Shown piece after piece: positions 2,033 to 18,087 of a stretch of DNA of 27,722 nucleotides. Origin of the DNA: a candidate division FCPU426 bacterium. GTDB lineage: Bacteria; Oederibacteriota; JAAXVQ01; JAUVAV01. Numbering within the stretch: the first letter of the stretch is position 1; each line of letters starts with the position of its first letter. Location of the stretch: NCBI GenBank assembly GCA_030637655.1, contig DAOWGI010000036.1, positions 1 through 27,722 on the forward strand, read 5' to 3'. The notes below the pieces were generated by a model that searched no databases, was not told the origin of the DNA, and saw only the letters and a program-made list of their open reading frames with translations. A program made the translations under genes and the position numbers.

Positions 2033-3058
2033 TCAGCTACTTTTTTTACTCTTTCTCCCCAACTTTTTTGTTTCATCAATCAAGACGTCAAGAGCATTTC
2101 TTTTTTTATCATAAGCAAATTGTCTTTTTTTAGAATATTTTTCATATTCTTTATTGACCGAGTCTATAGCAAGCTTATGTGATATTCTTCCTGCATTGTT
2201 TAATATTTTTCTTTCATTAAGCCTTAAAAAGCCATCCAGTTTCCTAATCCAATACTTCATATACATTGGAACCCGCCTCATGGCCTGCCCTTCCGCAAAA
2301 ATTAAATATTGCTCCACCAAATTATTCAAAGCCAACAATTCTTTTTCGTTTAAATAATTCTTAGCAATTTCAATATCATCTTTGCGGATTTTTACTCCGC
2401 GCCAGTTAGTTAATCCCATATTGGGCTTCTTGCTGTCTGCTCTTGAGCGAATAATCTCTGCCGCGGTTTGGCCTGTAATTGCCCAGTGCATTTTATTTTG
2501 AACAGTCTTAAAAAAATCAATACTCATTTCAGCCGTGGGATCATAGTCAACGCTGGTGGCATAAATATCCGTTATCTTTTGATAAAACCGTCTTTCCGCG
2601 GTGCGGATATCCTGAATACGCCTGAGTAATTCATCAAAGTAATCAAAGGGCTGATCGGGATTTTTTAATCGCTCATCATCCAGCACAAATCCTTTAACAA
2701 TAAATTCTCTAAGGTGCCGCGTTGCCCACTGTCGGAAATGGGTTGCTATCCTTGATTTGATTCGATAGCCTACGGAAATAATCATATCCAGATTATAAAA
2801 TTCGACTTTGCGTCTGACCTGCCGGCTACCTTCCTTTTGAACTGTCAAGAATTCCTTGACAGTTGCCTGCGGTAGAAGTTCCTGGTCTTCATAAATATTT
2901 ATAATATGGAGGCTTATATTCTGTTTGGTCGTTTGAAACAGTTCTGCCATCAATTGCTGGGATAACCAAACCGTTTCATCCTGAAACCTGACATCAATTC
3001 TGGTTTCGCCTGCTTCCGTCTGATAAATAATAAGCTGTGATTGATTTTTATCTGTCAT
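2033..3058 (-). CDS. Virulence RhuM-family protein (copy 1)
   Basis: ETVWLSQQLMAELFQ, FYNLDMIISVGYRIKS, FRQWAT, GFVLDDERLK, IAKNYL motifs. Start at MTDKNQSQLIIYQ. Confidence 0.9.
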   Translation of the reverse strand: MTDKNQSQLIIYQTEAGETRIDVRFQDETVWLSQQLMAELFQTTKQNISLHIINIYEDQELLPQATVKEFLTVQKEGSRQVRRKVEFYNLDMIISVGYRIKSRIATHFRQWATRHLREFIVKGFVLDDERLKNPDQPFDYFDELLRRIQDIRTAERRFYQKITDIYATSVDYDPTAEMSIDFFKTVQNKMHWAITGQTAAEIIRSRADSKKPNMGLTNWRGVKIRKDDIEIAKNYLNEKELLALNNLVEQYLIFAEGQAMRRVPMYMKYWIRKLDGFLRLNERKILNNAGRISHKLAIDSVNKEYEKYSKKRQFAYDKKRNALDVLIDETKKLGRKSKKSS

Positions 3059-3121
3059 AGTTGCCTTTCCCAGCACATTCTTCCACATCGCTCATTGTTA
3101 TTTCGGGTTTCTTACATATCG

Positions 3122-3236
3122 TATATTCCCCGGCATTATCACCGTTTTGTGATTCGCAGGAAAATATACAAGGCTTTGTTCTGCCCGAGGGCATATCCCT
3201 CAGAAATGTAACCGCTTCTAAATAAGGTATGGTCAT
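3122..3236 (-). pseudogene. HipA-like kinase N-terminal fragment (DUF3037-associated type)
   Basis: MTIPYLEAVTFLRDMPSGRTKPCIFSCE...GEY with GGAGG RBS. Close paralogue of 6690-6804; similarity stops at ~3122. Confidence 0.6.
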
Positions 3237-3268
3237 CTAACCTCCGCAAGCACCGCTCCAGGTCAATT

Positions 3269-3293
3269 GAAACCAGTGGCTGGCACCTGATTC
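3269..3293 (+). repeat. 25-bp island motif copy 1
   Basis: GAAACCAGTGGCTGGCACCTGATTC. Confidence 0.9.
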
Positions 3294-3396
3294 CGCAACC
3301 ACCGTTCGCCAGACCGATTGTACCCGTACTGTCGGCAAATAATCTAATATTTCTCTAATATTAAATCCTTTAATTCAACCAATTCTTGCTCCAATA

Positions 3397-3419
3397 GAAA
3401 CCAGCCTGGCACCTGATTC
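3397..3419 (+). repeat. 25-bp island motif copy 2 (2-nt shorter)
   Basis: GAAACCAG--CCTGGCACCTGATTC. Confidence 0.85.
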
Positions 3420-3447
3420 CCTTTGATAAAAATCTTGTATTTACTCA

Positions 3448-4263
3448 TTACCTCGTATTCCCCTTGTATTGTGGAATAACGACCAACTTATCTAAACGCC
3501 GGTGTATCAATGAAATTAGTGCAAAACTATCCAGGGCATCTTGCTCGTCCATTTGCCAATTCAGTTTGGCTTCATGAGCCAGAGGGTTACGAATAAAACC
3601 ATAAACTCCTTTCAATAGGTTGGCAAACCCTTTATGCTCTGCCTGTTCTGATTTTGTTCTTAACGTATTAATTGCAACCATTGGGTTATCGATTGCAAAG
3701 GCTTGATCAATGATTTTTACACCATCATCCGTAAGACCTGTTTTCTCTCGCAATCGACCCAGCACGCCTTTTGTCGCTTCAAAGACAGCATGAAAATAAT
3801 TTTCCGCCACAAGTTCAGGCAAACAATATTTAAACACTTCGGAATGTGTTCCTCTATTTTGTAATTTCAATTTCAAATTTGACGATTTTTGCAAAGCCTC
3901 TTGTACAGTTTTGGTTTGTGAAACAGCCGTTAGCTTACCTTCACCATTCAGTGATAACCCAGACAACGAAAGAATTTGATTAAGTTGTGCTTTGCGATTC
4001 TCAAATAACTCCATTTCCTGAAGATAACGGGCAGGTGACATTGCGTTTTCCAAAAAGACACCAATTTTATTGCCACATTTATCCGCAACTTGTTGGTCTG
4101 AGAACGCCTGAAAAAGTCTTCGCCATTTTGTCAAAGGCCCAGGGTCAGCAATTTGACACTGGGCAAGCAACCTTCCTATTTCACCTCCTGTAAATCCTCC
4201 CCCTGTATCACCAAGAATTTTGCATACTGCTTCCAATATTTCCGGGGAAAAGCTAGGTATCAT
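3448..4263 (-). CDS. TIGR02391-family protein (AbiJ-like N-terminus, HEPN-like C-terminus)
   Basis: ENYFHAVFEATK, EHKGFANLLKG..RNPLAHE (RxxxxH), DALD..ALISLIHRRLD. Confidence 0.85.
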   Translation of the reverse strand: MIPSFSPEILEAVCKILGDTGGGFTGGEIGRLLAQCQIADPGPLTKWRRLFQAFSDQQVADKCGNKIGVFLENAMSPARYLQEMELFENRKAQLNQILSLSGLSLNGEGKLTAVSQTKTVQEALQKSSNLKLKLQNRGTHSEVFKYCLPELVAENYFHAVFEATKGVLGRLREKTGLTDDGVKIIDQAFAIDNPMVAINTLRTKSEQAEHKGFANLLKGVYGFIRNPLAHEAKLNWQMDEQDALDSFALISLIHRRLDKLVVIPQYKGNTR

Positions 4264-4335
4264 TGTGGCCCTCCATCTACAAACGCTTTACATAATATAG
4301 CCCAGCATTCCAAATTATTCTTTACGATAATATCG

Positions 4336-4360
4336 AGAACCAGTACCTGGCACCTGATTC
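4336..4360 (+). repeat. 25-bp island motif copy 3
   Basis: AGAACCAGTACCTGGCACCTGATTC. Confidence 0.85.
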
Positions 4361-4446
4361 CGTCTTCGGAATTCACATTACCCTTCTAAAATCGGCTTCA
4401 AGATTTCCGAACTTTTTTCAGAAAAGCTGTCATCTATTTGACAATC

Positions 4447-5469
4447 TCATTTTTCATCTTTTCTAACATCACTCTCAATCTGTTTCAGGTCATTCTCCAA
4501 TTCGTTTAAGCTGTTTTCATGGAATGTTTTATTTTGAACCTCTTTATATTTTTTTAACTCTAAATTTGATTTTTCTAAAGCCATTTGGCGGCTTATTTTT
4601 CCGGCATGTGTAAGCAAATCTCTACCATTTAACTTCAAAATGTTATCAAGCTTGCCAATCCAATCATTCATATACATTGGTGTGTGTTGTTGGGCCATAG
4701 TCTCGGCAAAGGCAAGGTATTGCTCTACCAATAATCCAAGGAGTTTTATTTCATTTTCGTTCAAATAGTTTTTAGCAATACTGACTTCGCTTTTTTGGAT
4801 TTTAATATTGTTTTTTTTGTCGTATGATTGCATTCCCAAAAGGGGTAAAGAAGCATCTACTCTGCGAAAAACCAGTTCTGCTGCGGTCTGCCTGCTTATA
4901 GCCCAAAGTAGTTTGTTTTGTACAATCTTAAAAAATTCAATAGTCATCTCATCTTTCGGATCATAATCAATACTGGTTATATATATATCTTTTATCTTCT
5001 GATAGAAAAACCGCTCAGAAAGGCGGATTTCACGGAGTCTTTCTTGTAATTCATTGAAATAGTTCATGGAATTGCCGGTTTTAAACCGTTCATCATTCAG
5101 GGCAAAACCTTTTATGATATAGTCTTTTAAACGCTGTGTTGCCCAGATACGGAATTGCGTAGCCACTTGTGATTTTATTCTATATCCGACCGAGATAATG
5201 GCATCCAGATTATAGAATTTCTGTTTACGGTTTACTGCTCGATCACCCTCTTTTTGAACTATTAAGAAATCCTTACAAGTTGCTTTTTCGTCCAATTCTC
5301 CCTCTTCATAGATATTTTTTAGGTGCATGGTGATATTTTGTGGTTTTACTTGAAAAAGTTCAGCCATCAGCTTTTGAGTAAGCCAAACAGTTTCATTTTC
5401 CAAACGAACATCTATTTTGATGTTACCGCCGGGGGATTTATAGATAATTATTTCGGAATTTTGTTCCAT
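4447..5469 (-). CDS. Virulence RhuM-family protein (copy 2)
   Basis: ETVWLTQKLMAELFQ, FYNLDAIISVGYRIKS, IRLSERFFYQKIKDIY, IAKNYL motifs. Confidence 0.9.
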   Translation of the reverse strand: MEQNSEIIIYKSPGGNIKIDVRLENETVWLTQKLMAELFQVKPQNITMHLKNIYEEGELDEKATCKDFLIVQKEGDRAVNRKQKFYNLDAIISVGYRIKSQVATQFRIWATQRLKDYIIKGFALNDERFKTGNSMNYFNELQERLREIRLSERFFYQKIKDIYITSIDYDPKDEMTIEFFKIVQNKLLWAISRQTAAELVFRRVDASLPLLGMQSYDKKNNIKIQKSEVSIAKNYLNENEIKLLGLLVEQYLAFAETMAQQHTPMYMNDWIGKLDNILKLNGRDLLTHAGKISRQMALEKSNLELKKYKEVQNKTFHENSLNELENDLKQIESDVRKDEK

Positions 5470-5472
5470 AAT

Positions 5473-5577
5473 TTAACTTTCCAATTCTTTTTGGGTGGCA
5501 CTTAAGGTATCAAGCGCCTGTTTTAATTCAGCCGTAGATTCTTTAAATTCAATTTTTGATGATTCCTTCACTTTCAT
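5473..5577 (-). pseudogene. AlbA_2/Schlafen-like domain N-terminal fragment
   Basis: GGAG RBS, then MKVKESSKIEFKESTAELKQALDTLSA (ES..IEFKES...LSA pattern), ending before the expected FAN motif. Confidence 0.6.
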
Positions 5578-5620
5578 AAGCTCCGCTCAATTCGTTTTTT
5601 TAGCTTTCATTCATTGTTTA

Positions 5621-5651
5621 TATATTCCCCGGCACCATCACCGTTTTGTGA
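5621..5651 (-). pseudogene. 31-bp sliver of the HipA-like kinase gene
   Basis: TATATTCCCCGGCACCATCACCGTTTTGTGA matches 3122-3152 at 29/31 positions. Confidence 0.7.
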
Positions 5652-5674
5652 ACCCAATGGCCGGCACAGGCTTT
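5650..5674 (+). repeat. 25-bp island motif copy 4 (degenerate)
   Basis: GAACCCAATGGCCGGCACAGGCTTT. Confidence 0.7.
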
Positions 5675-5691
5675 CTATTAAAATCCTGCTT

Positions 5692-6068
5692 TTAACCAGA
5701 CACTTCCCAGTGCCCCCCTTTTCGAGCTCCTACCCGTTTAAGCCGCCCTGATTGACGGAGTGCTTTAATCTGCTTTTCGACAGCTCTTTCGGTTATTTTT
5801 AATATTTCCGATATTTCCGAAATCGTTGTAGCGATGATATTTTAAATAGTGATAATATTTTTTCAGATGTTTTTCCCGAACTTTTCACTCCTTCGGTATC
5901 TTTAAATCTATTCAGAAACGCCGGGTGAAGAGGAAGCTCAACCGTTAGAAAAGTCCTTTCTTCATCTGTATGAAATACCGGACGTGACGAGCCATTAACT
6001 TTGCATTCACGTATTATCTTTGGAATACCTGTTCCGCGTCCTTCGGTCATTTCCAGTTCTTTAAGAAA
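5692..6068 (-). pseudogene. C-terminal fragment of a RecG-C/HATPase_c_4 + winged-HTH regulator, frameshifted
   Basis: FLKELEMTEGRGTGIPKI..., then after a frameshift near 5830-5840, TTISEISEILKITERAVEKQIKALRQSGRLKRVGARKGGHWEVSG*. The 5' part is missing at motif copy 5. Confidence 0.75.
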
Positions 6069-6089
6069 CCCGTGGCCGGCACCTGATTC
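6065..6089 (+). repeat. 25-bp island motif copy 5
   Basis: GAAACCCGTGGCCGGCACCTGATTC. Confidence 0.9.
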
Positions 6090-6560
6090 GCTCTATAGCC
6101 AACTGATATTAGTAACAGTTCAGTGAACTGCGGTTAAACAAAGGTTGTCATACCCGCATGTAGTAAGCGGGTATCCAGTGACTTTTAAGTCCTTTAAAAT
6201 CAAAACCTCTGGTTCCCCGATTAAAGCATTCGGGGATGACAAACGATAAAAATCACTTCACTGAACTGTTACTGATATTATGACATCAAGGTTGTAATAT
6301 TTGATTTGCTTGGTTTGAGTTTTGCCTTTTATTGCACCATGCCTGGTGGTATGTCGGAAATGCCGACTTACCTCTTTTTCGTTCAGTTCGCCCTCTTTAA
6401 AGATGTTACTAATATGTTCGGTTATGGTTGTTCGCCCTTTTCCGAACAATTCCGCTATCTGCTCCTGCGTAAGCCAAACTGTCTCACCTTGCAAACGGGT
6501 TTGTATGCGGGTTTCATTGTCCGCTGTTTGATAGATTATTATTTCAGAATTTTGTTCCAT
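6090..6560 (-). pseudogene. RhuM-family protein (copy 3), MITE-interrupted and truncated
   Basis: MEQNSEIIIYQ...ETVWLTQ...YYNLDVIISV. The coding sequence resumes as ISVGYR at ~6092-6109 on the far side of the MITE, then meets motif copy 5. Confidence 0.85.
6112..6272. mobile_element. 161-bp MITE with 16-bp perfect terminal inverted repeats and 8-bp target duplication
   Basis: GTAACAGTTCAGTGAA (6112-6127) / TTCACTGAACTGTTAC (6257-6272), flanked by TGATATTA at 6104-6111 and 6273-6280. Contains a double-hairpin TTGTCA...TGACAA repeat. Confidence 0.85.
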
Positions 6561-6582
6561 ATTCAACTCTCCAAAATCGGCT

Positions 6583-6804
6583 TTAATATTTCGGGGATGG
6601 TATATCAATAAAATCAGCTAATAAAGAAGCAATAATTTCCGCTGAAAGACTTTTTACACCACTATCCATCCCGGCTTTCAATTCAACCACATATTCCCCG
6701 GCATCATCCCCGTTTTGCGATTCGCAAGAAAATACCCAAGGCCTTGTTCTGCCGGAGGGCAGGTCTCTCTGAAATAAAACCGCTTCTAAATAAGGTATGG
6801 TCAT
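6583..6804 (-). pseudogene. HipA-like kinase N-terminal fragment (longest copy, ~70 aa)
   Basis: MTIPYLEAVLFQRDLPSGRTRPWVFSCE...EYVVELK...LSAEIIASLLADFIDIPSP is a HipA-like N-lobe pattern, far shorter than a full kinase. Confidence 0.65.
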
Positions 6805-6849
6805 CTAACCTCCGTAAACAGCACTCGCCAGATCGATTGTATCAGGTCC

Positions 6850-8472
6850 CTACTTCTCTGATTTAATTTTTTGTAAAGAAACTTTATAGCCATAAGTTTC
6901 CAATTTTTGCTTTGCATTTTTCAAAGCAACTTTACTGAAAAATGGTATTTCCAAGTCATTTTCTACCGAACTTATTACAGCAAAAACCACTTCATAATCA
7001 GAAGCTTTCGGTTTATTTTCAATATCAAATATCCTATGTGCTTTTGATAGTTTTGCGCTTACTTTTTTTCTGAAATCTTCATCTCTTATAAAGAGTTCGC
7101 CAGACACGATCCCCTGGTTGAACAAATGACTTAAAACAGATGAACCGCCATAATGTTTTACGTGTATCATTTTTTTGTTTTTTGCAAACAGATCACAAAA
7201 TTCAATTTTACTATAACCGCCTCCATGGCTGATGTTTTTTCTATCCATACAACAAAATTGCTTGTCTTTTTGAGCAATCTTTATATTATAATCATTTTCA
7301 TTTCCATGCTGATAAGATGGCAAATCAATAGATATTGCTTGATTTCTAAGTGCTTGATATTCTTTATCCACTGATTTAGTAAAACTTTTTTCCACTTCAT
7401 ACCATTTCCCATTACTCAGCAAATATGTTTTTTCTTTGGTGCGGTCGTTTATTTCACAATACATACAATTGTATGCAGACCATTGGTGTTTAAGGCTGTC
7501 GTTTTGAGAATCAAAACAATATATTTTTTTCTTTTTCAATATTTCTATAGATAATTTATTTTTATCATCTTCAGATGCATCAGACAATGAATTAATAAAA
7601 GCGGATAAATTTATGTCATCATATTGTGTTTTAGGTCGCGCGCTATTTTTATATGAAAATCCTGAAACCTCTTCCCATTTCACAAGTTCTGGCACAGCCA
7701 TCCACGTTTTACCTTCTTGGTTGTTCTTTATATTTTCAATTAATTGCCCATCTAAAGTTTCGATTAGTTTTGGATCTTTTATGTCAGCAATCTGATCGAT
7801 CCAACCAAAATCCTTTTTATAATCTGTTTTTAAATATGTTTGGTAACATGTTTCTAAAAAATCCTTTATATTTGTCAAATCAACTTTGACTGAAACGCTC
7901 AAAGCGTCTTTACCTGTTATATTTTTTCCAAAAGTTTCATCTATAGTTTTTCCGGTAATTGATTGGACTAAATCTTGCTCAATATCAATTCCAAAATCCG
8001 CAGCTACACCTCCGCGGCTTAATTGTTCACTGGTATCTTTAGGAACAGAAGACATATTTTTTTTATCAATTCTGCGAAGACTGTCAGCATCAACAATATT
8101 GAGTGCTGTTTTTAAGCCAAAGCGTTCTTCCCATACTCCATGATTAAGAAGCGTCCAGCCATACCCAAAAGGAATTGCAAAAATTCTTCCTTGCTGTTTC
8201 ACTAATAAAACAGCCTTTGAGGTTGCGCTAAAAAGTTTTGATTTTGGTACATTTTCATATTTCTTATTATTGAAACTATCGTTAAAAAAATCTTCGATCC
8301 ATGCCGGTTCAAAATATTGTGAATCACCATAATATAACGTACCGATAGTGTTGGTTTTGTATTTGATATCTTCTTCTGTGAGCTCAGTATATTTCCCAAG
8401 AATATCCTCAGGCTTTGTGTACGATTCTTTAATAAGGTAGATGGTTAATTTGTTTGTTGGAATTTTGGCCAT
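6850..8472 (-). CDS. TIGR04141-family sporadically distributed protein (DUF6119)
   Basis: LTIYLIK, FAIPFGYG, FGLKTALN, LSNGKWYEV, IEFCDLF, HVKHYGGSSVLSHLFNQG, IPFFSKVAL motifs; 540 aa. Confidence 0.85.
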   Translation of the reverse strand: MAKIPTNKLTIYLIKESYTKPEDILGKYTELTEEDIKYKTNTIGTLYYGDSQYFEPAWIEDFFNDSFNNKKYENVPKSKLFSATSKAVLLVKQQGRIFAIPFGYGWTLLNHGVWEERFGLKTALNIVDADSLRRIDKKNMSSVPKDTSEQLSRGGVAADFGIDIEQDLVQSITGKTIDETFGKNITGKDALSVSVKVDLTNIKDFLETCYQTYLKTDYKKDFGWIDQIADIKDPKLIETLDGQLIENIKNNQEGKTWMAVPELVKWEEVSGFSYKNSARPKTQYDDINLSAFINSLSDASEDDKNKLSIEILKKKKIYCFDSQNDSLKHQWSAYNCMYCEINDRTKEKTYLLSNGKWYEVEKSFTKSVDKEYQALRNQAISIDLPSYQHGNENDYNIKIAQKDKQFCCMDRKNISHGGGYSKIEFCDLFAKNKKMIHVKHYGGSSVLSHLFNQGIVSGELFIRDEDFRKKVSAKLSKAHRIFDIENKPKASDYEVVFAVISSVENDLEIPFFSKVALKNAKQKLETYGYKVSLQKIKSEK

Positions 8473-8525
8473 GTTAACCCGCTCCTCAATAAATTTAAAA
8501 AGGAAAGATTTAATCCTTAGTTTCG

Positions 8526-9236
8526 TTATTCATCTTCATTATTGTAGGCCTCGACATATTGCTTCTTTATCTGACCAATCAACTTTTTCTTCCCGTGGAC
8601 GGCCAAAGAATTAAAATTAAATTCCAGGCACATTTTCATGTCTTGCTGTGAAAAATAATTTTGCCGGAGCAACACTTCCTGAAAGTGTTCAAAGTTTTCT
8701 TCTTCCTCACTCAATACTCTGGCAAAAATAGCAAACAAGACCTCCTTCATGTTGTTTTGAATCTGAGCAACACAATCTAATATTTGAGTGATCTTCTCAT
8801 CGAGCTGTTCCTGCGACTCAAAGAATATATTGCCGTTTGAATGAGCCACATCATTGCGCTGATCGATTATCTTATGCCATTGTCCAATTTGACCATTGTC
8901 AAAACCTATCAACTTGAAGAACCTCAATATGCTTCGCTCATTTAATTCACTCAAACTGAACGGCGTTCCAGAGTTTAAAAGCTTATTTTCAATATCTTTT
9001 CCAAATCCAATCAATGCTTTTTGAAAACAATCCGGCCTAACTGATTTTATTTTCCAGATAGAAAAATACACAAACATCATAAACGACATATGATATGCAA
9101 GAAATGAAAATTGATACTTTTTATTCTCATAGTTGCATACAAACGCATCCCAAAGAAACGGCAAATACTCCTGTTCTTTTTCAGTACAATAATAGCTGGG
9201 CAAATAGTCTAAAATAGCTTGAGCGTCCTCAATCAC
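8526..9236 (-). CDS. Hypothetical protein with HEPN-like RxxxxH motif
   Basis: 236-aa ORF that looks helical by eye, containing IDQRNDVAHSNG. Start overlaps the M-S gene stop (ATGA). Confidence 0.6.
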   Translation of the reverse strand: MIEDAQAILDYLPSYYCTEKEQEYLPFLWDAFVCNYENKKYQFSFLAYHMSFMMFVYFSIWKIKSVRPDCFQKALIGFGKDIENKLLNSGTPFSLSELNERSILRFFKLIGFDNGQIGQWHKIIDQRNDVAHSNGNIFFESQEQLDEKITQILDCVAQIQNNMKEVLFAIFARVLSEEEENFEHFQEVLLRQNYFSQQDMKMCLEFNFNSLAVHGKKKLIGQIKKQYVEAYNNEDE

Positions 9237-11830
9237 TTCTCACCCCAGACTTTGGCAATACGGTCTTTGATTTTTTGTTCGTACATTTTAATGAGTTTTT
9301 TGTTGGCATCTACTATTTGTTGTTCCTGCTGAATTGTATATATAACCTTATCTTGTACTTCCGTATCCGGACGAGGAATTAACCATTTTGAAACAAAATC
9401 TTTAGGAACTCTCTGCAATCCACCAGTTCCTGTCATTTTTGCTTTACCAGATCCCCTAAAACTCCTTGGTACTATGTTGTAATATATCCATTCAGGACGA
9501 ACCTTGTTACCAGCTCTTAAAACATAAAATTCACTTGAACCAAAACCTATACCATTGAGCAAATTACGCGCAAGCCCAGCTTTTCCATTTTCGAAACATG
9601 GTGTTACTTTCGCCAACAACACATCTTCATTTTGGAAATATGTATACCCCTCAAAGACATCCCCTAACCGTTTTTTTTGTTTAGACTCAAAATACATTTG
9701 ATTTTCATTGATATCTGCCATAGGGACAAAAGAAACTACTAGTTCTTGATTCTTATCCGAAATTCGTGACTTCTTTGGATTTAATTCACAAACTTTGCCC
9801 AACTCCACCATCTCCCACTCAGGATCAATATCAATGCGCGGCTTGTAGTTTTCAACAACTTGCCGCGCGCCGTTGATGATTTTTTGATAGCCATCTAATT
9901 CTGCAACGATTTCTTGTTGGATGGGTAATGGGGGCAAGGGCAATTGAATGTTTTTCAAGACTCTAACTGATGCAACATTTTTTATTGCTGCACCATATGT
10001 TAAGTTATTGAGTGAGCATTGAAACTTATCACTCTCCATCATATATTTTAAGTAGTTTTTGTCGATTTTATTTGACGGCGACAATTTTAACAGCGCTTGG
10101 TTAATTATACCAGGTTTAAGCCATGTAGGTGCAATGGCCACTTTCCCCATCGTTCCAGAGCAACTCATTATTAAGTCGCCAGGGTTTAGATGAAATTGTG
10201 TCATTTCCTGGTATTTTTTTTCATCTATATAATATCTAACTGCATTAAAGTCGTTTTGGATCGCATGACTTTGTTCATATATACAATACCCGGACGACAC
10301 AAAAATGTCTTTTTTTAAACTTCCGCCAAAAGGTCCACGCTTAAATTCTGCAACATCTCCCAATTTTTTAAAAATGTAATTACTTGATCGAAACTCATCT
10401 CTTGTTTTGTACCTCTCTCCGCTCAGATTATATTCCCCACCCTCTGCAATCTTACTTTTTTCAACCAAATGTATATTCTGCCATCCATCGCTGTTAAATA
10501 CTTTTCCTGCAAGCAGTGCTTCTTTATATTCCATAATCGCTTGATACGCCTCTGGCAGATCATTTTTCTTGATGGGCCGGCGTTGGGCCCCGAGGTCAAA
10601 GCCGTCGTTTTCGATTTTGACGAATAATAGTTTATCCGTCTTTTTGGCTAATTTTTTATCGAACCAGAGAATAGACGTTTTTACGCCTGAATAGGGATTA
10701 AACAGTCCGGCAGGCAGGGATATCACCCCGACTAAAAAGTGATCCTCCACCAGCATTTTGCGAAGCTGTTTATAGGCGTTGGATGTTTGAAAAATAATGC
10801 CTTCCGGCACAATAATCGCGGCGCGGCCCTGAGGGTTCAAATGTTCAGCCATGTAATCCACAAACAGCACTTCCGAGCGGTTGGCTTGCACGGAAAAACG
10901 GTTATGGGGTTTGATCCCGCCTTTGGGCGACATAAAGGGCGGATTGGCCAGGATGACATCCGCTTTTTCATCCCATTTTTCGTCACGGGAGAGCGTATCA
11001 TATTCCGCAATGCTTGGATTACTGAATCCATGTAAATACATATTCACCAGCGAGAGGCGCACCATATCAGGAGAAATGTCATATCCAAAAATGTTGTCAA
11101 CCAGGCGCTTTCTGTCATCTGAAGTCAGTTTCTCGCCTTTATACCCTTTTCCGTTAATGGTAAGTTCCGAAAGTTTGATGTCCTGTAATTCAAAGGGCTT
11201 GGGATCATGCTTAGGGTCATAATTTTTTGAATTTCTTTTAATGATGTGTTTATACGCGGAGATTAAAAACCCGGCCGTGCCGCAGGCAGGGTCCAGAATC
11301 CGCTCGTTTTTTTTAGGCTCCAATATCTCAACCATAAAATCAATGATGTTTCTTGGAGTCCTGAATTGTCCGGCATCTCCCTGACTGCCTAATACGGAAA
11401 GCAGGTATTCAAAAGCATCGCCTAATCTTTCGGAATGATCATACTCAAAGGTATTAATCTCTTTAAGAAAATCTTTTAATGTTTCCGGGTCACGATAGGG
11501 CAAATAAGCATTTTTGAATATATCCCTGAACAGTTGCGGAACATTGTTGTTATAATTCATGTTCTGAAGGGCTTCGCCGTATAAATTAACAACTTCCTGT
11601 CCGCTGTTTCTCGGATCAAAAATATTTCGCCAGGCGTATTTTTTATATTCTTTTGTAAAAAACTTGGCTTTGCCGCGGGGCAGGCTTTCCGCCTGCCTGT
11701 CCATATCATCCATGAATTTATAAATAAGCGCGATGGTTATCTGTTCAACCTGCGACTTGGGATCAGGTATTTTGCCGACCAGAATATCGCGGGCTGAATC
11801 TATCCGTCTTTTGGTCTCGCTATCTAACAT
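9233..11830 (-). CDS. Type I-like N6-adenine methyltransferase fused to a two-TRD specificity subunit (HsdM-HsdS fusion)
   Basis: GQFRTP, DPACGTAGFL and NPPF motifs in the N-terminal ~480 aa. The C-terminal part has two TRDs (KLGDVA...PLPPLPIQQEIV; LGKVC...GTGGLQRVP) of HsdS type. Confidence 0.9.
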   Translation of the reverse strand: MLDSETKRRIDSARDILVGKIPDPKSQVEQITIALIYKFMDDMDRQAESLPRGKAKFFTKEYKKYAWRNIFDPRNSGQEVVNLYGEALQNMNYNNNVPQLFRDIFKNAYLPYRDPETLKDFLKEINTFEYDHSERLGDAFEYLLSVLGSQGDAGQFRTPRNIIDFMVEILEPKKNERILDPACGTAGFLISAYKHIIKRNSKNYDPKHDPKPFELQDIKLSELTINGKGYKGEKLTSDDRKRLVDNIFGYDISPDMVRLSLVNMYLHGFSNPSIAEYDTLSRDEKWDEKADVILANPPFMSPKGGIKPHNRFSVQANRSEVLFVDYMAEHLNPQGRAAIIVPEGIIFQTSNAYKQLRKMLVEDHFLVGVISLPAGLFNPYSGVKTSILWFDKKLAKKTDKLLFVKIENDGFDLGAQRRPIKKNDLPEAYQAIMEYKEALLAGKVFNSDGWQNIHLVEKSKIAEGGEYNLSGERYKTRDEFRSSNYIFKKLGDVAEFKRGPFGGSLKKDIFVSSGYCIYEQSHAIQNDFNAVRYYIDEKKYQEMTQFHLNPGDLIMSCSGTMGKVAIAPTWLKPGIINQALLKLSPSNKIDKNYLKYMMESDKFQCSLNNLTYGAAIKNVASVRVLKNIQLPLPPLPIQQEIVAELDGYQKIINGARQVVENYKPRIDIDPEWEMVELGKVCELNPKKSRISDKNQELVVSFVPMADINENQMYFESKQKKRLGDVFEGYTYFQNEDVLLAKVTPCFENGKAGLARNLLNGIGFGSSEFYVLRAGNKVRPEWIYYNIVPRSFRGSGKAKMTGTGGLQRVPKDFVSKWLIPRPDTEVQDKVIYTIQQEQQIVDANKKLIKMYEQKIKDRIAKVWGEK

Positions 11831-11895
11831 AGTTTCTCCTCTTTAAAGTTCATGAGTTTAGCCCCGTTACAAGTGGTTATGTCACTATCCGAAAT

Positions 11896-11993
11896 TTGTC
11901 ATCCCGGCAATATTTTAGCCGGGATCCAGTGACTTTTAATTCTTTTAAAATCAAAACCTCTGGATCCCCGATAAGATCATTCGAGGATGACAA
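11896..11993. repeat. Double-hairpin REP-like element (TTGTCATCCCG...GGATGACAA)
   Basis: Closely similar to 6145-6242, including the spacer CCAGTGACTTTTAA...AAAATCAAAACCTCTGG. Confidence 0.8.
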
Positions 11994-12036
11994 GCAAAAA
12001 AAACGGCTTTCCTCAACAGGAACTAGTTACCTTGCA

Positions 12037-14562
12037 TTACATAAATGCATTAAGCGGCACGTAATCCTTGACATATTCCATGACCGGAACCATCAACTCG
12101 CCCAATTCCTGTAAATCCCGCATATTAAACCTTGGGTTTGTCGCAAGAGATGAAAATTCCCCTGTTTCCATGATCTGTCTTATTTCATTATCCGAAATAT
12201 AGGCTTTCATAAACTGCCCGATAATATGCGCGAATTCAGGCTGCGGATGGTAAATGGAAATAAATTTCTGCACTTCTTCTTCCAGCAGTTCGTCTTTGGT
12301 CTTGAACTTTTTGATAGTACCGAATATCTTCTCGAGAATTTCCCGCAAGCTTACCCGGCGGTCTAATTTGATGGACTTGCGCAGTTTTTCAAGATCAAAA
12401 TATTCTTCAGGCTTGTTAAATACTTCCTGCTTGATATAGGCTTCCGCTTCCTCAAATTTGCCCTCATTGATTTTCGCCTTGATATGCTCATCCGCGCTGA
12501 TTGTTTCCTCAAATTTTTCAAACAGCTTGCGGTCAATCCTCATGCCTTCCAGACCAATGACCTTTTCATGAAGACCCGTAATCGGATCGGGATTGACATT
12601 TTCATATTCAATTGATTCTTTTGGCAAAATAACAGGGTCAGGTCCGGTTACTTTGGCATTGTTTTTCGGCAATTCAAGGACTTCATCATAAGGATACTTG
12701 TCATCAAAATATTCACAATTGGCAAAAAAATCAAAGAGTTTGAATTTTTCTTTTTCCTGCTTATAGGCTTCTGTGCCGCCCATTCCATCCGCTTCTTTGT
12801 GCACAAACGCGTATTTGCGCGTGCCACGGCCTTTTATCTGAATGAAATCAGTCGGCGAAAATATCGGCCGCAGCATACACAGATTAAGAATGTCCCGGCA
12901 GTCATAGCCGGTAGTCATCATGCCCACAGTTACACAAACACGGGTTTTTGAGGTGCTGTACCCGTCTACAAACTTTGAATTTCCATTTAAGCGATTATTG
13001 GCAAAGTTAATAGTCATTTGCTGCGCGCCGGAAACATTGGATGTTATTTGAACAGCAAAATCCGAATTATATTTGCCGGGATATTTTTGATGCGCGAGCT
13101 CGTTTAAGATTTGTGTGACTTTTGAGGCGTGATTTTGACTGACACAAAAACAAATGGTTTTACCGATCTCCTTGGTTAACGGATCACGCAAAGCATTATC
13201 AAAAAATGTTTTACAGAATGTAAGGTTGGTCTCATCAGAGAATAATTTTTTCTCAAAATCTTTTTGATAAAATATTTTTTCCTCTTCCCCGCCTTCCTCA
13301 TTGGCCATGACAACAGCATAGCCTTCATCTGATAATAATTGGGTTGTGATTTCCGTTCTGGCGTCGATTGTGATCGGATTGATTAAATAGCCCTCGCGAA
13401 CCCCGGCCAGCAAAGAATAACGAAAGGTCGGATCACTGTCCAGGCAGCCAAAGGTGGTATAAGTGTCCAACAATTGCCTTTGTTCCAAAGCCCGCGGATC
13501 ACGATTGGCCAGATGGCTTATATCCACATTTTTAAGATAATTTTTAGGGGTTGCGGTTAGTCCCAGTTTATACCCGATAAAATATTCAAAAACCGCACGG
13601 CTATTGCCTCCGATTGATCTATGCGCTTCATCAGAGATTACCAGATCAAAATCCGTTGGGCTGAACAAGTCTTTGTACTTATTATTAAACAGCAATGACT
13701 GTACGGTTGAAACAACGATTTCCGCCCTGATCCAATCGTCTTTATTCTCTTTATAAATCACACATTTAAAATCATTTTTAAGATAATCTTTAAAATTTCT
13801 CCTGGCCTGATCTTCCAGTTCCAAACGGTCCACCAGAAATAATACGCGCTTGGCATTACTTGTGCGCAAAAACAGTTTACTCACTGCTGCTGATACCAGG
13901 GTTTTGCCGGTGCCGGTTGCCATTTCAAATAGAAACCGGTCCTTTCCTTGCTTCACAGCATCTTGAATAGAACGAACCGCTTGCTTCTGATACTCGCGTA
14001 AAAAACGCAATCCGCTATTTTCGATAAACTTTTCTCTCTGCGATTCATCCTGCCATTGCGGGTCTTTGCTGTAATTCTGGTTCTGAGTTATGGCAATATA
14101 ATCATGGCCGACTTCTTCCCGAATAAGCGCATCCCGGTCTGGCGTAAATGCCTGTTTGTGCGAAATAGAATCTTGTGAGGGAAAGGTCGTGATAATATGG
14201 GGGTTGTCTGTTTCAACATCCCAAAAATAATGAATATTTCCGTTGGATAAGATCACAAAGCGCACGTTTATAGATTGCGCGTATTGTCTGGCTTGTTCCT
14301 TGCCGTCCAGCGGGCTTTTGTCTTCCTTCTTTGCTTCTAAAACAACAAAAGGGAAACCGTTTTTGTCTAAAAGGAGAAAATCAATAAAGCCATTTTTGGT
14401 TTTTTCAAAATCTTCCCCCAGCTCATTTAATGCCCGCTCGCTCAATTTGGCATTAACTTCCAGAGCAATATTGGCCCGGCCTTGATTGGAATCAAAAAAG
14501 CGCCATCCGGTATCTTCCAGAAGTTTATTGATTTTGATTCTTGCTTTGGCTTCTTTTGGCAT
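12037..14562 (-). CDS. hsdR: Type I restriction endonuclease subunit R (EcoEI-like DEAH helicase/nuclease)
   Basis: FIDFLL..VLEAKK..QARQY nuclease motif, REYQ, MATGTGKT, FLVDR, DEAH, GLTATP, TTGYD, QIKGRGTR. Start at MPKEAKAR with an AGGAG RBS. Confidence 0.9.
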   Translation of the reverse strand: MPKEAKARIKINKLLEDTGWRFFDSNQGRANIALEVNAKLSERALNELGEDFEKTKNGFIDFLLLDKNGFPFVVLEAKKEDKSPLDGKEQARQYAQSINVRFVILSNGNIHYFWDVETDNPHIITTFPSQDSISHKQAFTPDRDALIREEVGHDYIAITQNQNYSKDPQWQDESQREKFIENSGLRFLREYQKQAVRSIQDAVKQGKDRFLFEMATGTGKTLVSAAVSKLFLRTSNAKRVLFLVDRLELEDQARRNFKDYLKNDFKCVIYKENKDDWIRAEIVVSTVQSLLFNNKYKDLFSPTDFDLVISDEAHRSIGGNSRAVFEYFIGYKLGLTATPKNYLKNVDISHLANRDPRALEQRQLLDTYTTFGCLDSDPTFRYSLLAGVREGYLINPITIDARTEITTQLLSDEGYAVVMANEEGGEEEKIFYQKDFEKKLFSDETNLTFCKTFFDNALRDPLTKEIGKTICFCVSQNHASKVTQILNELAHQKYPGKYNSDFAVQITSNVSGAQQMTINFANNRLNGNSKFVDGYSTSKTRVCVTVGMMTTGYDCRDILNLCMLRPIFSPTDFIQIKGRGTRKYAFVHKEADGMGGTEAYKQEKEKFKLFDFFANCEYFDDKYPYDEVLELPKNNAKVTGPDPVILPKESIEYENVNPDPITGLHEKVIGLEGMRIDRKLFEKFEETISADEHIKAKINEGKFEEAEAYIKQEVFNKPEEYFDLEKLRKSIKLDRRVSLREILEKIFGTIKKFKTKDELLEEEVQKFISIYHPQPEFAHIIGQFMKAYISDNEIRQIMETGEFSSLATNPRFNMRDLQELGELMVPVMEYVKDYVPLNAFM

Positions 14563-14710
14563 ATTGCTCCTTTTTAACCGGGAGACGTTTTTTCGTTTCA
14601 TATTATGGCACAATTATATGCCCTTCTCACTTTTCAACCAATCACAATTGGTTCAAATCCAACCACAACTCACACTTCTTCCTTTTTTAAACAGGTCGTC
14701 TATTTTTCTC

Positions 14711-14735
14711 GAAACCAGTGGCCGGCACCAATTTC
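14711..14735 (+). repeat. 25-bp island motif copy 6
   Basis: GAAACCAGTGGCCGGCACCAATTTC. Confidence 0.85.
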
Positions 14736-14758
14736 ACCAACATACGAAGCATACTTGT

Positions 14759-15346
14759 TTAATTGATCAGCTCACGGCAAAATGCTTCTAATGGGCCATA
14801 ATTTCCCCGGTCCGCCTCCTGCATGGACTTGATATATGTTTCCCGGATTTTAGTTTTCTCAATCAATTCCTTATCCGGCCAGTTGGGCAATTTTTCACCC
14901 CGACCGAAAAGGAATATATCCGAAATCAGCCTGGCATGTCTTCCGTTTCCATTGAAAAAGGGGTGAGTTTTTACCAGTCTATGGTGTATATATACACTTC
15001 TATCAAACACACTTAACGTATTGTTTTTTTCCCAAAATTCAATATCCTTGGCCAAATTATATATCTCTATAGGTATTTGAATCGGTTCCACACCAAGATT
15101 TAAGGAGACCGTCCGAAAAGTCCCCGCCCAGGTCCAGGTTTGTTCAAACATTTCTTTATGCACTTTTTTTATAAACTCAACTGTCATTAAATACTTCCTG
15201 CGCTTTAATAGGTATTTGCGTGTGGCCTGGGCAATGTTATATGCTTCATATTCATTAAGTTGGGTTTGGGTTTCTATGTGTTTCGGGATTAAATGAGAGA
15301 CATCGCCAATAGGAGTCGCATCAGGAACAGCTTCAAATCCAGGCAT
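14759..15346 (-). CDS. Mobile mystery protein B (Fic domain)
   Basis: HPFFNGNGRHARL Fic motif, N-terminal PDATPI...LNEYEAYNI, WTWAGTFR. Confidence 0.9.
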   Translation of the reverse strand: MPGFEAVPDATPIGDVSHLIPKHIETQTQLNEYEAYNIAQATRKYLLKRRKYLMTVEFIKKVHKEMFEQTWTWAGTFRTVSLNLGVEPIQIPIEIYNLAKDIEFWEKNNTLSVFDRSVYIHHRLVKTHPFFNGNGRHARLISDIFLFGRGEKLPNWPDKELIEKTKIRETYIKSMQEADRGNYGPLEAFCRELIN

Positions 15347-15793
15347 TTATTCTTCCCAGAGCGAAGCATTGGGATTTTTCGTAAGTTCACGTGTTAGTTC
15401 ATCTAATTCCTTATGATATGTTTTATCGTCAGGCGCCTGATTTTCAAGTGCCATATTAGCGTATGTACGCTTTAGTATCCGCTCAGCAGTTTTTCCGGCC
15501 TGGCGTTGTATCATTTCTTCAAGCGTAACCGGCAGCGAAACACTCATTAAAAGATAGCCATTAAAAATGCTAATATATCGTTCGAGTGTTTGTAAGTTGG
15601 CTGAAGACAGATTTTTCTCAAGTTTGGTCACTGCCTGCCTGGTTATACCAAGCCTCTTGGCCACTTGTTTCTGAGTCATGCCCAGAGATTTTCTAATATC
15701 TTTTAGACGCCGGCCAAACTTAAATACTGGCATAGGATTGCCTGATTTTGTAAGTTCAGATAATTGTCTTATTTTTAGAGCACTTGTTGTCAT
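15347..15793 (-). CDS. Mobile mystery protein A (XRE HTH)
   Basis: IRKSLGMTQKQVAKRLGIT HTH, MALENQ motif and C-terminal LWEE. GGAGGAGG RBS before ATG 15793; abuts the Fic gene. Confidence 0.85.
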   Translation of the reverse strand: MTTSALKIRQLSELTKSGNPMPVFKFGRRLKDIRKSLGMTQKQVAKRLGITRQAVTKLEKNLSSANLQTLERYISIFNGYLLMSVSLPVTLEEMIQRQAGKTAERILKRTYANMALENQAPDDKTYHKELDELTRELTKNPNASLWEE

Positions 15794-15803
15794 ATTATCC
15801 TCC

Positions 15804-15870
15804 TCCACAAAAGCAACTTTGGAGTTTCTATTTTATTATAATTAAGCTACTTTAAAGTTGCTTTTGTGGA
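15804..15870. promoter_or_regulatory. Inverted-repeat operator/promoter upstream of mobile mystery A
   Basis: Perfect 17-bp IR TCCACAAAAGCAACTTT / AAAGTTGCTTTTGTGGA around a minus-strand TATAAT (15835-15840). Confidence 0.65.
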
Positions 15871-15933
15871 ATTATAGCAATTATAACAATAACAGACAAC
15901 TCTAAATGAATTCCGGGGTGTCTTTTTTTAAAC

Positions 15934-15958
15934 GAACCCAGTGGCTGGCACCTGATTC
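15934..15958 (+). repeat. 25-bp island motif copy 7
   Basis: GAACCCAGTGGCTGGCACCTGATTC. Confidence 0.9.
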
Positions 15959-15964
15959 ATCTGA

Positions 15965-16114
15965 TTCCCCCAGCTCATTTAATGCCCGGCCGCTTAATTT
16001 GGCATTAACTTCCAGAGCAATATTAGCCCGGCCTTGATCGGAATCAAAAAAACGCCATCCGGCTTCTTTCAGGAGTTTGTTGATTTTGATTCTTGCTTTG
16101 GCTTCTTTTGGCAT
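15965..16114 (-). pseudogene. Truncated second copy of hsdR (first 50 codons)
   Basis: MPKEAKARIKINKLLKEAGWRFFDSDQGRANIALEVNAKLSGRALNELGE aligns to 14413-14562. The upstream ~80 bp is also shared. Confidence 0.9.
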
Positions 16115-16219
16115 TTTGTTCCTTTTTAATCGGGACACTTGTGGCACAATTATATGTCCTAATCACTTTTCAACCAATCACAATTATTTCAAATATTGAT
16201 AAAATAAGAAGGGCCAGGC

Positions 16220-16906
16220 TTAAAAATCTATAGAACTTTCCTTAAAACTAAAATATTCATTCCCGCCGATAATAATATGATCCAGTAACGTAATTTCCAC
16301 TGTCTTAAGCGCTATCTTAATAGCTTTGGTGATATCCATATCTTCCCTGGAAGGCTCCAAAGACCGGGCAGGATGATTGTGGCTAATCACCACACCTGCG
16401 GCGTGGTGATACAATGCTTGTTCAACAATTGTTCTTGGAAAGACAATTATCTGATTAACGGTCCCGTTTTTTATTGCCTCCATGGCAATTAGCTGATTAC
16501 GATTGTCCAGAAATAACATTTTAAACTCTTCATCAGCCAAACCCTTAAGCGAAACCTTTAAGTAATCATAAATAAGTTGCGGTGATGAGAGCAAATCCCT
16601 GCTATGAAGATTGTTTTCCATATAAAAACCGGAAATATCCTTCAACAATTTCAAAAACAAAGCTGAATGCTTTGATATCCCACGAACGCCTTGCAACTCC
16701 TTGTAATCAGCATCAAGCACGCCATTTAAATTTTTAAACCGGCTAAGTAATTCTTTAGCTGTTTTTTTTGTGTCTTTACGGGCAATAGCATAGGACAAGG
16801 CCAGTTCTAAAACCTCATAATCCAGCCATCCCTTTAATCCGGCTTTTTCATATTTTTCTTTCATTCTGCTCCGGTGTCCGATATAACCGGTGACTGTCTC
16901 TTTCAT
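16220..16906 (-). CDS. radC: RadC-family JAB-domain protein
   Basis: GHRSRMKEK, YEVLELAL, EEFKMLFLD, GTVN, HNHP..SLEPSRED, LLDHIIIG motifs. Confidence 0.92.
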   Translation of the reverse strand: MKETVTGYIGHRSRMKEKYEKAGLKGWLDYEVLELALSYAIARKDTKKTAKELLSRFKNLNGVLDADYKELQGVRGISKHSALFLKLLKDISGFYMENNLHSRDLLSSPQLIYDYLKVSLKGLADEEFKMLFLDNRNQLIAMEAIKNGTVNQIIVFPRTIVEQALYHHAAGVVISHNHPARSLEPSREDMDITKAIKIALKTVEITLLDHIIIGGNEYFSFKESSIDF

Positions 16907-16933
16907 AAAAATCCATCCATCCTTATAAACCAG

Positions 16934-16958
16934 GAAACCGGTGGCTGGCGCCTAATCC
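16934..16958 (+). repeat. 25-bp island motif copy 8 (outermost)
   Basis: GAAACCGGTGGCTGGCGCCTAATCC. Confidence 0.8.
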
Positions 16959-17057
16959 TATAATCACCAGGGACATCAAACCTGACCACAGGAATGCGCA
17001 GGCCAGGTAATATAATATTTTGGTTATTTCCATAATTGAATGTTTGATTTTCGATAC

Positions 17058-17082
17058 GGGCGAATACAAGATTCGCCCCTAC
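17058..17082 (-). repeat. GTAG-type REP-like hairpin, possibly also a terminator
   Basis: Minus strand GTAGGGGCGAATCTTGTATTCGCCC; stem GGGCGAAT/ATTCGCCC just downstream of the radical SAM gene. Confidence 0.65.
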
Positions 17083-17109
17083 AGCGTCGATTTTTTATTT
17101 TAAATGTAT

Positions 17110-18087
17110 TCAAAATATCCCCGGTATTTCCCTCTCACACTGGGGACATTTCCCTTCTGCGATATGCACGACATTGGTTTGGTAGCCGTGCCGTTGCACT
17201 AACAGCGTTTGGCACTCAGGACAGTAGGTCGAATCATCACCAGCTCCCAAATTCCCCAAATACACCCATTTCAATTTCCGTTTTGCCACCTCTCGGGCTT
17301 GCTGCAGCAACTCCGGATCTGTCGGCGGTGCTTCCCACTTATATTGCGGATAATAACGGGTAAAATGCACTGGGATTTCAGACGAAACCTCAGCAATCCA
17401 ATCCACCAATGCGCTAATCTGCTGAATATCGTCATTGCCTGCTGTTACGATTAAATGTGTAATTTCCAGATGCGCATGTTGAGCTATGATCTTGACATTG
17501 CGCAACACCGGAGCTAATTTCGCTCCGCAAAAGTGTTGATAAAATTCTTCCCGTATGGATTTAATATCCACATTCCACGCGTCAATCCAGGGCAGCAATT
17601 CCTGCAAGGGTTCGGGATTAATATAACCATTGGTCACTACCACATTGAGCAAACCCTTCGCACGTACCAATTTCGCGCAATCACGCACATACTCAAAATT
17701 GATCAACGGTTCGTTGTACGTATAGGCCACTCCGCAGGCACCCTGTTGTTGCGCTTCGGAAACCACTTGCTGCGCTGTCAGTGTTGAGAGTGGGGGATGT
17801 TTTTGTGATATATTCCAATTCTGGCAAAAGGAACAGCGAAAATTACACCCGGCTGATCCCAGTGAAAGAATGGATTGCCCTGGTTTGACATGAAAGAGCG
17901 GCTTCTTTTCAATTGGATCCAGCGCCAAGGAAGAAATCCGGGCATACGCTTCCGCGACCAAGGTTCCCTGGGTGGCGCGCCTAATACCGCAGCGGCCGGT
18001 TTTATTTTCCTTAATCAGACACCCGTGCGGACAGAGTGTACAGCGTACCTGTTCGCCTTCCAACACCCAATAGCTCGCTGGCTGCAT
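17110..18087 (-). CDS. amrS: AmmeMemoRadiSam system radical SAM enzyme
   Basis: CTLCPHGC..GRCGIR, DPIEKKPL, GCNFRCSFCQN (CxxxCxxC), AYTYNEP and C-terminal CPEC/CPQC. Confidence 0.9.
   Translation of the reverse strand: MQPASYWVLEGEQVRCTLCPHGCLIKENKTGRCGIRRATQGTLVAEAYARISSLALDPIEKKPLFHVKPGQSILSLGSAGCNFRCSFCQNWNISQKHPPLSTLTAQQVVSEAQQQGACGVAYTYNEPLINFEYVRDCAKLVRAKGLLNVVVTNGYINPEPLQELLPWIDAWNVDIKSIREEFYQHFCGAKLAPVLRNVKIIAQHAHLEITHLIVTAGNDDIQQISALVDWIAEVSSEIPVHFTRYYPQYKWEAPPTDPELLQQAREVAKRKLKWVYLGNLGAGDDSTYCPECQTLLVQRHGYQTNVVHIAEGKCPQCEREIPGIF

Follow-up and report, generated by a model that had tools for sequence, protein, structure and literature searches.

A hairpin-less short repeat linked to a REP-associated tyrosine transposase probably marks rearrangement seams in a bacterial defence island

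The 27,722-nucleotide stretch of DNA analysed here (the window) is the whole of contig DAOWGI010000036.1, below called C68, of the 3.28-Mb, 120-contig assembly GCA_030637655.1 (G000) of a candidate division FCPU426 bacterium, whose genome is 91.6% complete. It carries part of a genomic island of defence and toxin-antitoxin genes, in which eight 25-bp sites of uniform orientation are interspersed. These sites belong to a dispersed family of short repeats whose 12-nt core also stands, in inverted copies, on both sides of genes for a REP-associated tyrosine transposase (RAYT; REP, repetitive extragenic palindromic), and in the island they lie where truncated genes end and unrelated sequence begins. 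The explanation that we favour, with a probability of about 0.65, is that of a RAYT-linked short repeat without a hairpin, whose subtype in the island stands at rearrangement seams and probably promotes them.

The initial annotation had described the sites by a 25-nt consensus of the type GAA(A/C)CC(A/C/G)GTGGC(T/C), and a search with it at up to three mismatches, controlled by 100 dinucleotide-preserving shuffles, recovers five of the eight, all on the plus strand (3269, 6065 and 15934 at 0 mismatches, 14711 and 16934 at 3), with 0.00 expected from the shuffles. The remaining three (3397–3419, 4336–4360 and 5650–5675) are genuine on direct reading but degenerate. The eight sites are co-oriented, and on the sense strand, that of the co-oriented minus-strand genes, they read as GGAATCAGGTGCCRGCCACTGGTTTC; the minus strand carries every gene between 138 and 20950. 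Most of the other features attributed to the array are borne out as well: no copy lies past 16958, so that the housekeeping half of the window is free of them; the spacing, given as about 0.13–8.6 kb, runs irregularly from 128 bp to 8.6 kb; 8 of 12 pairs are dyad-symmetric on direct reading, and no stable single-strand hairpin results; and the sites bracket discrete cargo. By Pfam and NCBIfam the intervals contain TIGR02391, two RhuM genes and a RhuM fragment, a regulator C-terminal fragment, an hsdR/hsdM-S/TIGR04141 block, a helix-turn-helix (HTH) plus Fic pair, and an hsdR 5' fragment with RadC, and the same profiles find no recombinase gene in the window, as had been stated. Conservation among the ten copies known from the genome, aligned with 40-nt flanks, stops outside about 26 nt. 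The copies in the window, in the order in which the sense strand meets them, are these.

16934–16958, minus strand: M1, core GGCGCCAGCCAC with 1 mismatch; the first island feature, 6 nt past the end of a 77-bp repeat
15934–15958, minus strand: M2, exact core
14711–14735, minus strand: M3, between the Fic stop codon and the hsdR promoter region
6065–6089, minus strand: M4, adjoining an N-terminally truncated regulator fragment
5650–5675, minus strand: M5, degenerate, core TGTGCCGGCCAT with a diverged right arm; adjoins a truncated copy of the rhuM leader module
4336–4360, minus strand: M6, degenerate, core GGTGCCAGGTAC with a diverged left arm; downstream of rhuM2
3397–3419, minus strand: M7, with a 2-nt deletion; homology to contig C17 (from 2290 onward) starts directly after it
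3269–3293, minus strand: M8, matching the consensus exactly

An origin of the site in a tRNA or tmRNA gene was considered and rejected, ARAGORN predicting no such gene in the window, and Rfam gave no match to a known RNA family there at its gathering thresholds.

The 12-nt heart of the motif is GGTGCCAGCCAC, whose invariant form can be written GGTGCCAG(C/G)CAC. It occurs in 18 exact copies in the genome (8 forward and 10 reverse) on 14 contigs, and each of seven controls, namely six shuffled words and the word reversed, in 0–1; with one mismatch allowed the counts rise to 60 for the core and 1–26 for the controls. Among 40 relatives the core is enriched in members of the same family, in sister genera, with 36 copies in G008, 15 in G005 and 7 in G002, and the reversed control word has 0 copies in each of these three. 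Nearly all of 24 core sites lie between long open reading frames (ORFs), the others falling in doubtful short ORFs, and in the relatives the copies include housekeeping intergenic spaces. The flanks of the core define subtypes: that of the island is GAATCAGG...TGGTTTC, and a second, GAAC(T/A)GG... followed by a T-run, is present on six other contigs. Outside the window the full 25-mer is found only on contig C17, in two copies around a metallo-beta-lactamase-fold (MBL) gene. The initial annotation had taken scatter over the genome in both orientations as the mark of an ordinary REP; this is what the 12-nt core displays (14 contigs, both strands), but not the 25-nt subtype, which is confined to one island and runs one way. 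The 25-mer had 0 matches in contigs of other genomes and 0 in viral contigs; its 11 matches in metagenome contigs, single, one per contig and all on contigs of 56–71% GC, we read as chance. A full-text literature search for the 12-mer and its complement returned unrelated papers only. We note that in G005 (C3, 6250–7330) four tandem non-coding units of 246 bp, each with two internal palindromes, are joined to their neighbours at the 12-mer core, the array being flanked by a NUDIX-like and a short-chain dehydrogenase-like ORF.

The subtype with the T-run lies just upstream of a Y1_Tnp gene on contig C87 and of a decayed copy of that gene on C49. The C87 gene (G000:C87:11622-12266) encodes a 214-amino acid protein that passes the NCBIfam model NF047646 for REP-associated tyrosine transposases (84.6 bits, cut-off 80), matches PF01797 with an E value of 7e-19, and has an HFH motif and a YIDRNP tyrosine; the suggestion that an HUH or RAYT transposase be sought next to the motif was thus a fruitful one. 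In the family's 11 genomes there are six intact orthologues of 54–100% identity, the C87 query gene included, and in five of the six, from four genera, GTGCCAG(C/G)CAC is found 75–120 nt upstream on the gene strand together with an inverted copy downstream (G000:C87, G002:C12, G002:C13, G008:C145 and G004:C154; the decayed copy at G000:C49 is flanked likewise). The upstream copy is usually followed by the T-run. At the sixth orthologue, G004:C132, no copy was seen, and the contig ends only 113 nt upstream. With one mismatch allowed, a strand of the genome has on average only about 1 copy in 100 kb, so the copies around RAYT genes are not there by chance. Repeats that flank the gene have been described as the defining arrangement of RAYTs and REPs (PMC3116915 and PMC3337134, in excerpt). 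Because the core is spread genome-wide, is enriched in relatives and flanks the RAYT in inverted copies, the family is a RAYT-linked, REP-like one, neither of the attC kind nor specific to the island.

A second Y1_Tnp family, of 330–350 amino acids (about 335) with an N-terminal Y1_Tnp domain, occurs in every genome of the family in 1–7 copies (G000:C82:7653-8042 and 13 loci in relatives). A link of the core to this family was rejected, a symmetric- or exact-core copy being nearby at only 2 of the 14 loci.

The limits of the island can be placed by comparison with relatives, all of which belong to different genera (their radical-SAM protein is at most 70% identical). The radical-SAM gene (window 17110–18087) has as its next neighbour in G004, G009 and G007 the orthologue of G000:C17:3980-4438, that is, of orf152, which encodes a 152-amino acid membrane protein. 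These two genes stand directly next to each other in 7 of 7 relatives examined, so that the site is empty there. C68 read backwards from 17041 therefore continues, past a gap, into C17 read forwards. The island is thus at least 21 kb long, with 17.0 kb on C68 (window 1–17041) and 4.0 kb on C17 (1–3971), and its insertion point is within the first 25 codons of orf152. Two features of the window belong to this boundary.

16965–17041, minus strand: perfect 77-bp direct repeat, the left boundary of the island; its twin is C17:3972-4048 at 100% identity
1–17041, minus strand: the window's share of the genomic island, with a GC content of 0.35–0.40 against 0.46 in the flanking core genome

The 77-bp repeat spans orf152 from the ribosome-site region just before the start codon through codon 25. 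The assembly gap at the centre of the island holds an IS21-family element, the start of C17 (1–107) being the end of that element, which is found at C85 1507–3925 with an IstA-like protein of 519 amino acids and an IstB of 247 and also at the ends of C85, C66 and C67. The sequencing runs that hold the island carry the label cold seep metagenome.

As the C68 and C17 parts form one island, all ten copies of the 25-nt subtype in the genome sit in one island, co-oriented. Outside it, a manual count of core orientation relative to same-direction neighbouring genes gives 7 same and 4 opposite, so the ten-of-ten co-orientation exceeds what a preference for the sense strand alone would give. It could be explained by strand-specific HUH action or by the stepwise stacking of units. 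The position of M1, only 6 nt from the 77-bp repeat, recalls a further possibility, that the sites are repeated att cores left by the tandem integration of several integrase-driven islands at one place; the perfect repeat at both island ends does restore the 5' end of the target gene, as expected of such integration, and the site is empty in 7 of 7 relatives. The unit repeated within the island, however, is the 25-mer and not the 77-bp repeat, copies come as close as 103 bp apart, and the same core flanks RAYT genes and occupies housekeeping intergenic spaces in other genera. An integrase gene is likewise missing from the assembled 21 kb, the centre being unassembled with an IS21-family end at one edge. 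We regard tandem integration as quite improbable, and the insertion of the island is a separate and larger event than the spread of the sites.

Seven truncated genes or modules end 0–25 nt from copies of the repeat (at 16958, 15958, 6065, 5650, C17:1264 and two C42 sites). The truncated orf152 meets M1 6 nt after the end of the direct repeat. The hsdR 5' fragment loses its similarity to the complete hsdR gene 6 nt before M2, with unrelated sequence beyond, the regulator fragment 5799–6050, which is without its N-terminal part, begins at M4, and the rhuM2 leader is cut at M5, where that of rhuM1 extends 115 nt further. On C17 a 54-nt hsdS-type 3' remnant, 94% identical to window 9248–9301, directly follows a motif copy. 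On C42 a response-regulator fragment stops about 20 nt before a core copy, and a 403-bp piece, 95% identical to a Fic-type gene of C17, ends beside another. The same leader follows the motif in two places (window 3397 and C17 2265) after different genes, TIGR02391 in one case and the MBL-fold gene in the other, and the MBL unit, with a GC content of 0.287 between neighbours of 0.365 and 0.454, shifts in composition at its two motifs. The suggestion that the sites are recombination sites or scars of a gene-capture system therefore holds in so far as they coincide with mosaic seams, but integron-like cassette capture is not supported. Three features are needed for what follows.

15965–16194, minus strand: hsdR promoter plus 5' fragment, 85% identical to 14413–14658, cut off beside M2
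3257–3305, minus strand: 49-bp segment carrying M8, missing from two paralogous leaders and bordered by an imperfect 15-nt direct repeat (13/15)
6691–6839, minus strand: rhuM leader paralogue without the motif, the 'empty' comparison for M8

The leader in question is a shared one of about 230 nt with a 62-codon ORF (MTIPYLEAVTF...), present at window 3089–3396 and 6609–6839 and at C17 2290–2545; two rhuM copies follow it, but on C17 its cargo is a different one, an unrelated DUF4062/Fic pair. The 49-bp M8 segment is missing from both window 6691–6839 and C17:2370-2520. Because M8 is thus an insertion inside continuous sequence, at least one copy arrived alone, as a dispersed repeat would, and the view of the sites as fixed cassette boundaries fails at this copy.

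The contigs assembled from sequencing reads also bear on these joints. A 49-nt skip 3256/3306 and a joint 9278/3268 were rejected as variants, since six diagnostic letters in 3194–3213 assign them to mapping of the C17 paralogue; in one low-depth X4 contig 3185 and 3270 are linked through 3 other letters. Among the joints listed for Logan contigs of four other runs against window 1–19500 none goes from motif to motif, and since rare variants are lost from such short contigs, the result does not count against excision.

M8 also bears on whether the repeat might be a regulatory DNA site, an operator or promoter element that travels with accessory genes. Copies do stand 50–250 nt upstream of start codons on the sense strand, that of the RAYT gene itself included, but RAYT genes also have an inverted copy downstream, M8 was inserted in a leader of which two paralogues work without such a copy, and the motif is missing from 10 of 11 loci of rhuM homologues elsewhere. 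A sigma-54 promoter in particular is ruled out: a –24 TGGCAC is present, but no correctly spaced –12 GC was seen by eye in the contexts read. A regulatory role as the explanation of the array is very improbable. The motif was likewise rejected as an intrinsic part of rhuM genes, the core being within 1.5 kb at only 1 of 11 homologous loci in relatives.

The strongest form of the initial proposal is true cassette capture, in which the motif and one or more genes would be excised together as a circle, and a trans-acting recombinase, either the RAYT or an enzyme not seen here, would insert the circle at a motif already in place; the resulting co-oriented array would be integron-like in outcome. 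The confinement of all ten copies of the subtype to one island in one orientation fits it, as do four single functional units that are bracketed by sites (HTH-Fic, 1.2 kb; rhuM2, 1.3 kb; TIGR02391, 0.9 kb; MBL-fold, 1.0 kb), the compositional shift of the MBL unit at its motifs, the leader that follows the motif in two places behind different genes, and the G005 units joined at the 12-mer. With 10 repeats over about 22 intergenic spaces, however, some single-gene brackets are expected anyway, and the 8.6-kb unit contains five genes and two other repeat elements. No motif-bounded unit turned up in a second context, the rhuM homologues of relatives have the core close by at only the one locus of 11, and M8 sits in continuous sequence with no cassette border. 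Gain or loss exactly between motifs, which the initial annotation expected of aligned loci, was not observed in the comparison with these relatives of different genera. Cassette capture through the sites is unproven, and we think it rather unlikely.

In the explanation that we prefer, that of a RAYT-linked repeat at rearrangement seams, the 25-bp sites are one subtype of a dispersed-repeat family that is the cognate flanking repeat of the 214-amino acid RAYT (HUH/Y1, contig C87). The RAYT would recognise the 12-mer word and nick one strand there, and such nicking would spread short units, of which the 49-bp insertion at 3257–3305 may be an example. The sites might then become points of breakage and joining, at which over time adjacent deletions, segment replacements and insertions of foreign DNA would accumulate, the outcome being a patchwork island of defence and toxin-antitoxin genes with truncated genes set against motif copies. 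In this scheme the RAYT is the putative acting enzyme, the strand specificity of HUH enzymes would underlie the uniform orientation, and the sites would cause the rearrangements rather than accompany them. A bolder version is HUH-driven gene capture, in which the RAYT would act on units of one 12-nt site, without a hairpin, and one defence or toxin-antitoxin gene. Such units would be excised on one strand and reinserted at a site already present, each time in the same direction, so that a defence array of uniform orientation would build up. Such a system would be a functional analogue of the integron that uses single-strand HUH chemistry instead of a tyrosine recombinase; we consider it unlikely.

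Several observations weigh against the RAYT-linked explanation. Folded as single-stranded DNA, nine copies give only –1.8 to –6.8 kcal/mol, with z scores from –0.84 to +1.01 against shuffles. Flank covariation is absent, as none of 8 candidate stem-extension pairs exceeds shuffled controls among 101 distinct core sites (those of this genome together with the loci fetched from relatives). The copy number of the family is low, at about 45 (18 exact to 60 at up to one mismatch), and a plain dispersed-repeat model does not predict a 25-nt subtype that is restricted to a single island and runs one way when the count outside is 7 to 4. The 98%-complete genome of G005 has 15 core copies without a close orthologue of the 214-amino acid RAYT, its best match (E 4e-19) being a member of the other Y1 family, so core repeats can exist without the RAYT in an assembly. 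In favour of the explanation, RAYT groups 1 and 4 are described, in the excerpted text of PMC5581495, as having low-copy flanking repeats with 12–14 occurrences.

Because the copies do not fold and the flanks show no covariation, the family is not a classical palindromic-hairpin REP; as a whole it is a conserved word and not a hairpin. A symmetric variant, GGTGCCAGGCACC, accounts for 30 of the 101 core sites, and two copies on C42 (2170–2195 and 6035–6060) form a perfect stem of 10 bp, GGCAAAGGTG / CACCTTTGCC, with the loop CCAAC; no other subtype resembles the textbook REP hairpin.

The same properties decide against integron attC sites in a cluster that lacks an integrase (CALIN), to which the array, with its short imperfect palindromes in one orientation between genes that are mostly single, bears an outward resemblance. 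The attC sites are 57–141 nt long with paired R and L boxes. Here the conserved unit is 25–26 nt, with nothing conserved beyond it and no fold, which agrees with the earlier remark that attC structure is missing, and the best match to TIGR02249 in this 91.6%-complete genome, with its gap in the island, reaches 85 bits where the cut-off is 265, the hits being Xer-like genes on C83 and C41. This origin is extremely improbable.

Of known systems the family works most like the REP sequences and their RAYTs. In common with these it has a short, over-represented, mostly extragenic repeat shared by related genera, and inverted copies around one small gene, whose Y1/HUH transposase scores above the cut-off of the NCBIfam RAYT model. 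Unlike them, its sites are without a stable stem-loop or flank covariation, number only about 18–60 here, and include one subtype that occupies a single island, in one orientation, at seams. Neither the GTAG nor the CGTC tetranucleotide described in excerpts of PMC3733652 is seen beside the core in the column composition of the 101 sites. Having three features of REP/RAYT systems (flanking, enzyme type and extragenic over-representation) and lacking two (the hairpin and the tetranucleotide), the family is therefore not a plain member of that class.

In outcome the island resembles the neisserial NIMEs (Neisseria intergenic mosaic elements), in which dRS3 repeats of about 20 bp with short terminal inverted symmetry are arrayed with unrelated RS spacers. 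In the excerpted text of PMC1797815 they are proposed to act as sites for a recombinase and so to promote the exchange of genes beside them, and they serve as a target of phage integration. The G005 units of 246 bp joined at the 12-mer look much like a NIME. The sequence and the lineage differ, however, the spacers here are whole genes and extend up to 8.6 kb, and the candidate enzyme is a Y1 HUH transposase where that paper, in the same text, names a phage transposase. With integron attC arrays the island shares co-oriented sites between mostly single accessory genes on the same strand; it differs from them in having no IntI above the cut-off, no attC architecture and no fold, and in that the core also lies outside arrays and around a transposase gene. 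One-ended capture of the ISCR/IS91 type is the work of HUH Y2 enzymes, and ISCR capture followed by homologous rescue gives a similar topology to one that is seen twice here, in which a 5' gene fragment is followed by a site, cargo and the complete gene (orf152'...orf152 and hsdR'...hsdR). The likeness is one of outcome only, no Y2 enzyme and no oriIS or terIS having been identified in this case. Xer/dif modules have a 28-bp site, with a 6-bp centre between two 11-bp arms, whose orientation alternates; the site of the island measures 25–26 nt and runs one way throughout. A literature search that combined REP, defense island and gene cassette gave no account of REP-bounded defence cassettes among the matches listed.

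Repeats of the REP type are commonly regarded either as passive furniture of intergenic spaces or as selfish mini-elements. In this case a subtype of a REP-like family is concentrated, one-way, in a single acquired defence island, where genes are cut and segments swapped. If the RAYT does act at these sites, they would offer a concrete mechanism for the reshuffling of defence islands in a little-studied, uncultured lineage, and would extend RAYT substrates to sites without hairpins. If it does not, they are a warning that a co-oriented array of palindromes in an island can be a dispersed-repeat family and not a new integron.

Some further features of the window deserve mention. An 865-amino acid protein in which an N6 DNA methylase is fused to a type I specificity domain stands beside an 858-amino acid hsdR-type helicase (window 9233–11830 and 6850–8472), and this pair is followed by a 236-amino acid protein of no known family and a TIGR04141/DUF6119 protein, the whole making a compact restriction-type block. 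Another and far commoner repeat, of 110–170 bp with two internal hairpins, occurs at 6104–6272, 11896–12003 and 20986–21111 (inverted); it has 190 BLAST hits on 72 of the 120 contigs, often at contig ends, and on C38 one copy reaches 98.8% identity along 164 bp. It was rejected as a part of the same system, being a different family that lies beside no Y1_Tnp gene checked. In the housekeeping half a 156-bp direct repeat (21100–21255 and 23072–23227, 93% identity) and a 44-bp repeat (21248–21291 and 23803–23846, 95%) flank an FAD-oxidoreductase gene and extend into the wecB region. Both ends of the window contig (1–140 and 27423–27722) are short repeats common to other contigs: the first 140 nt are identical to C35:1-140, and the last 140–190 nt match C13, C4, C55, C94 and C116 at 91–98% identity.

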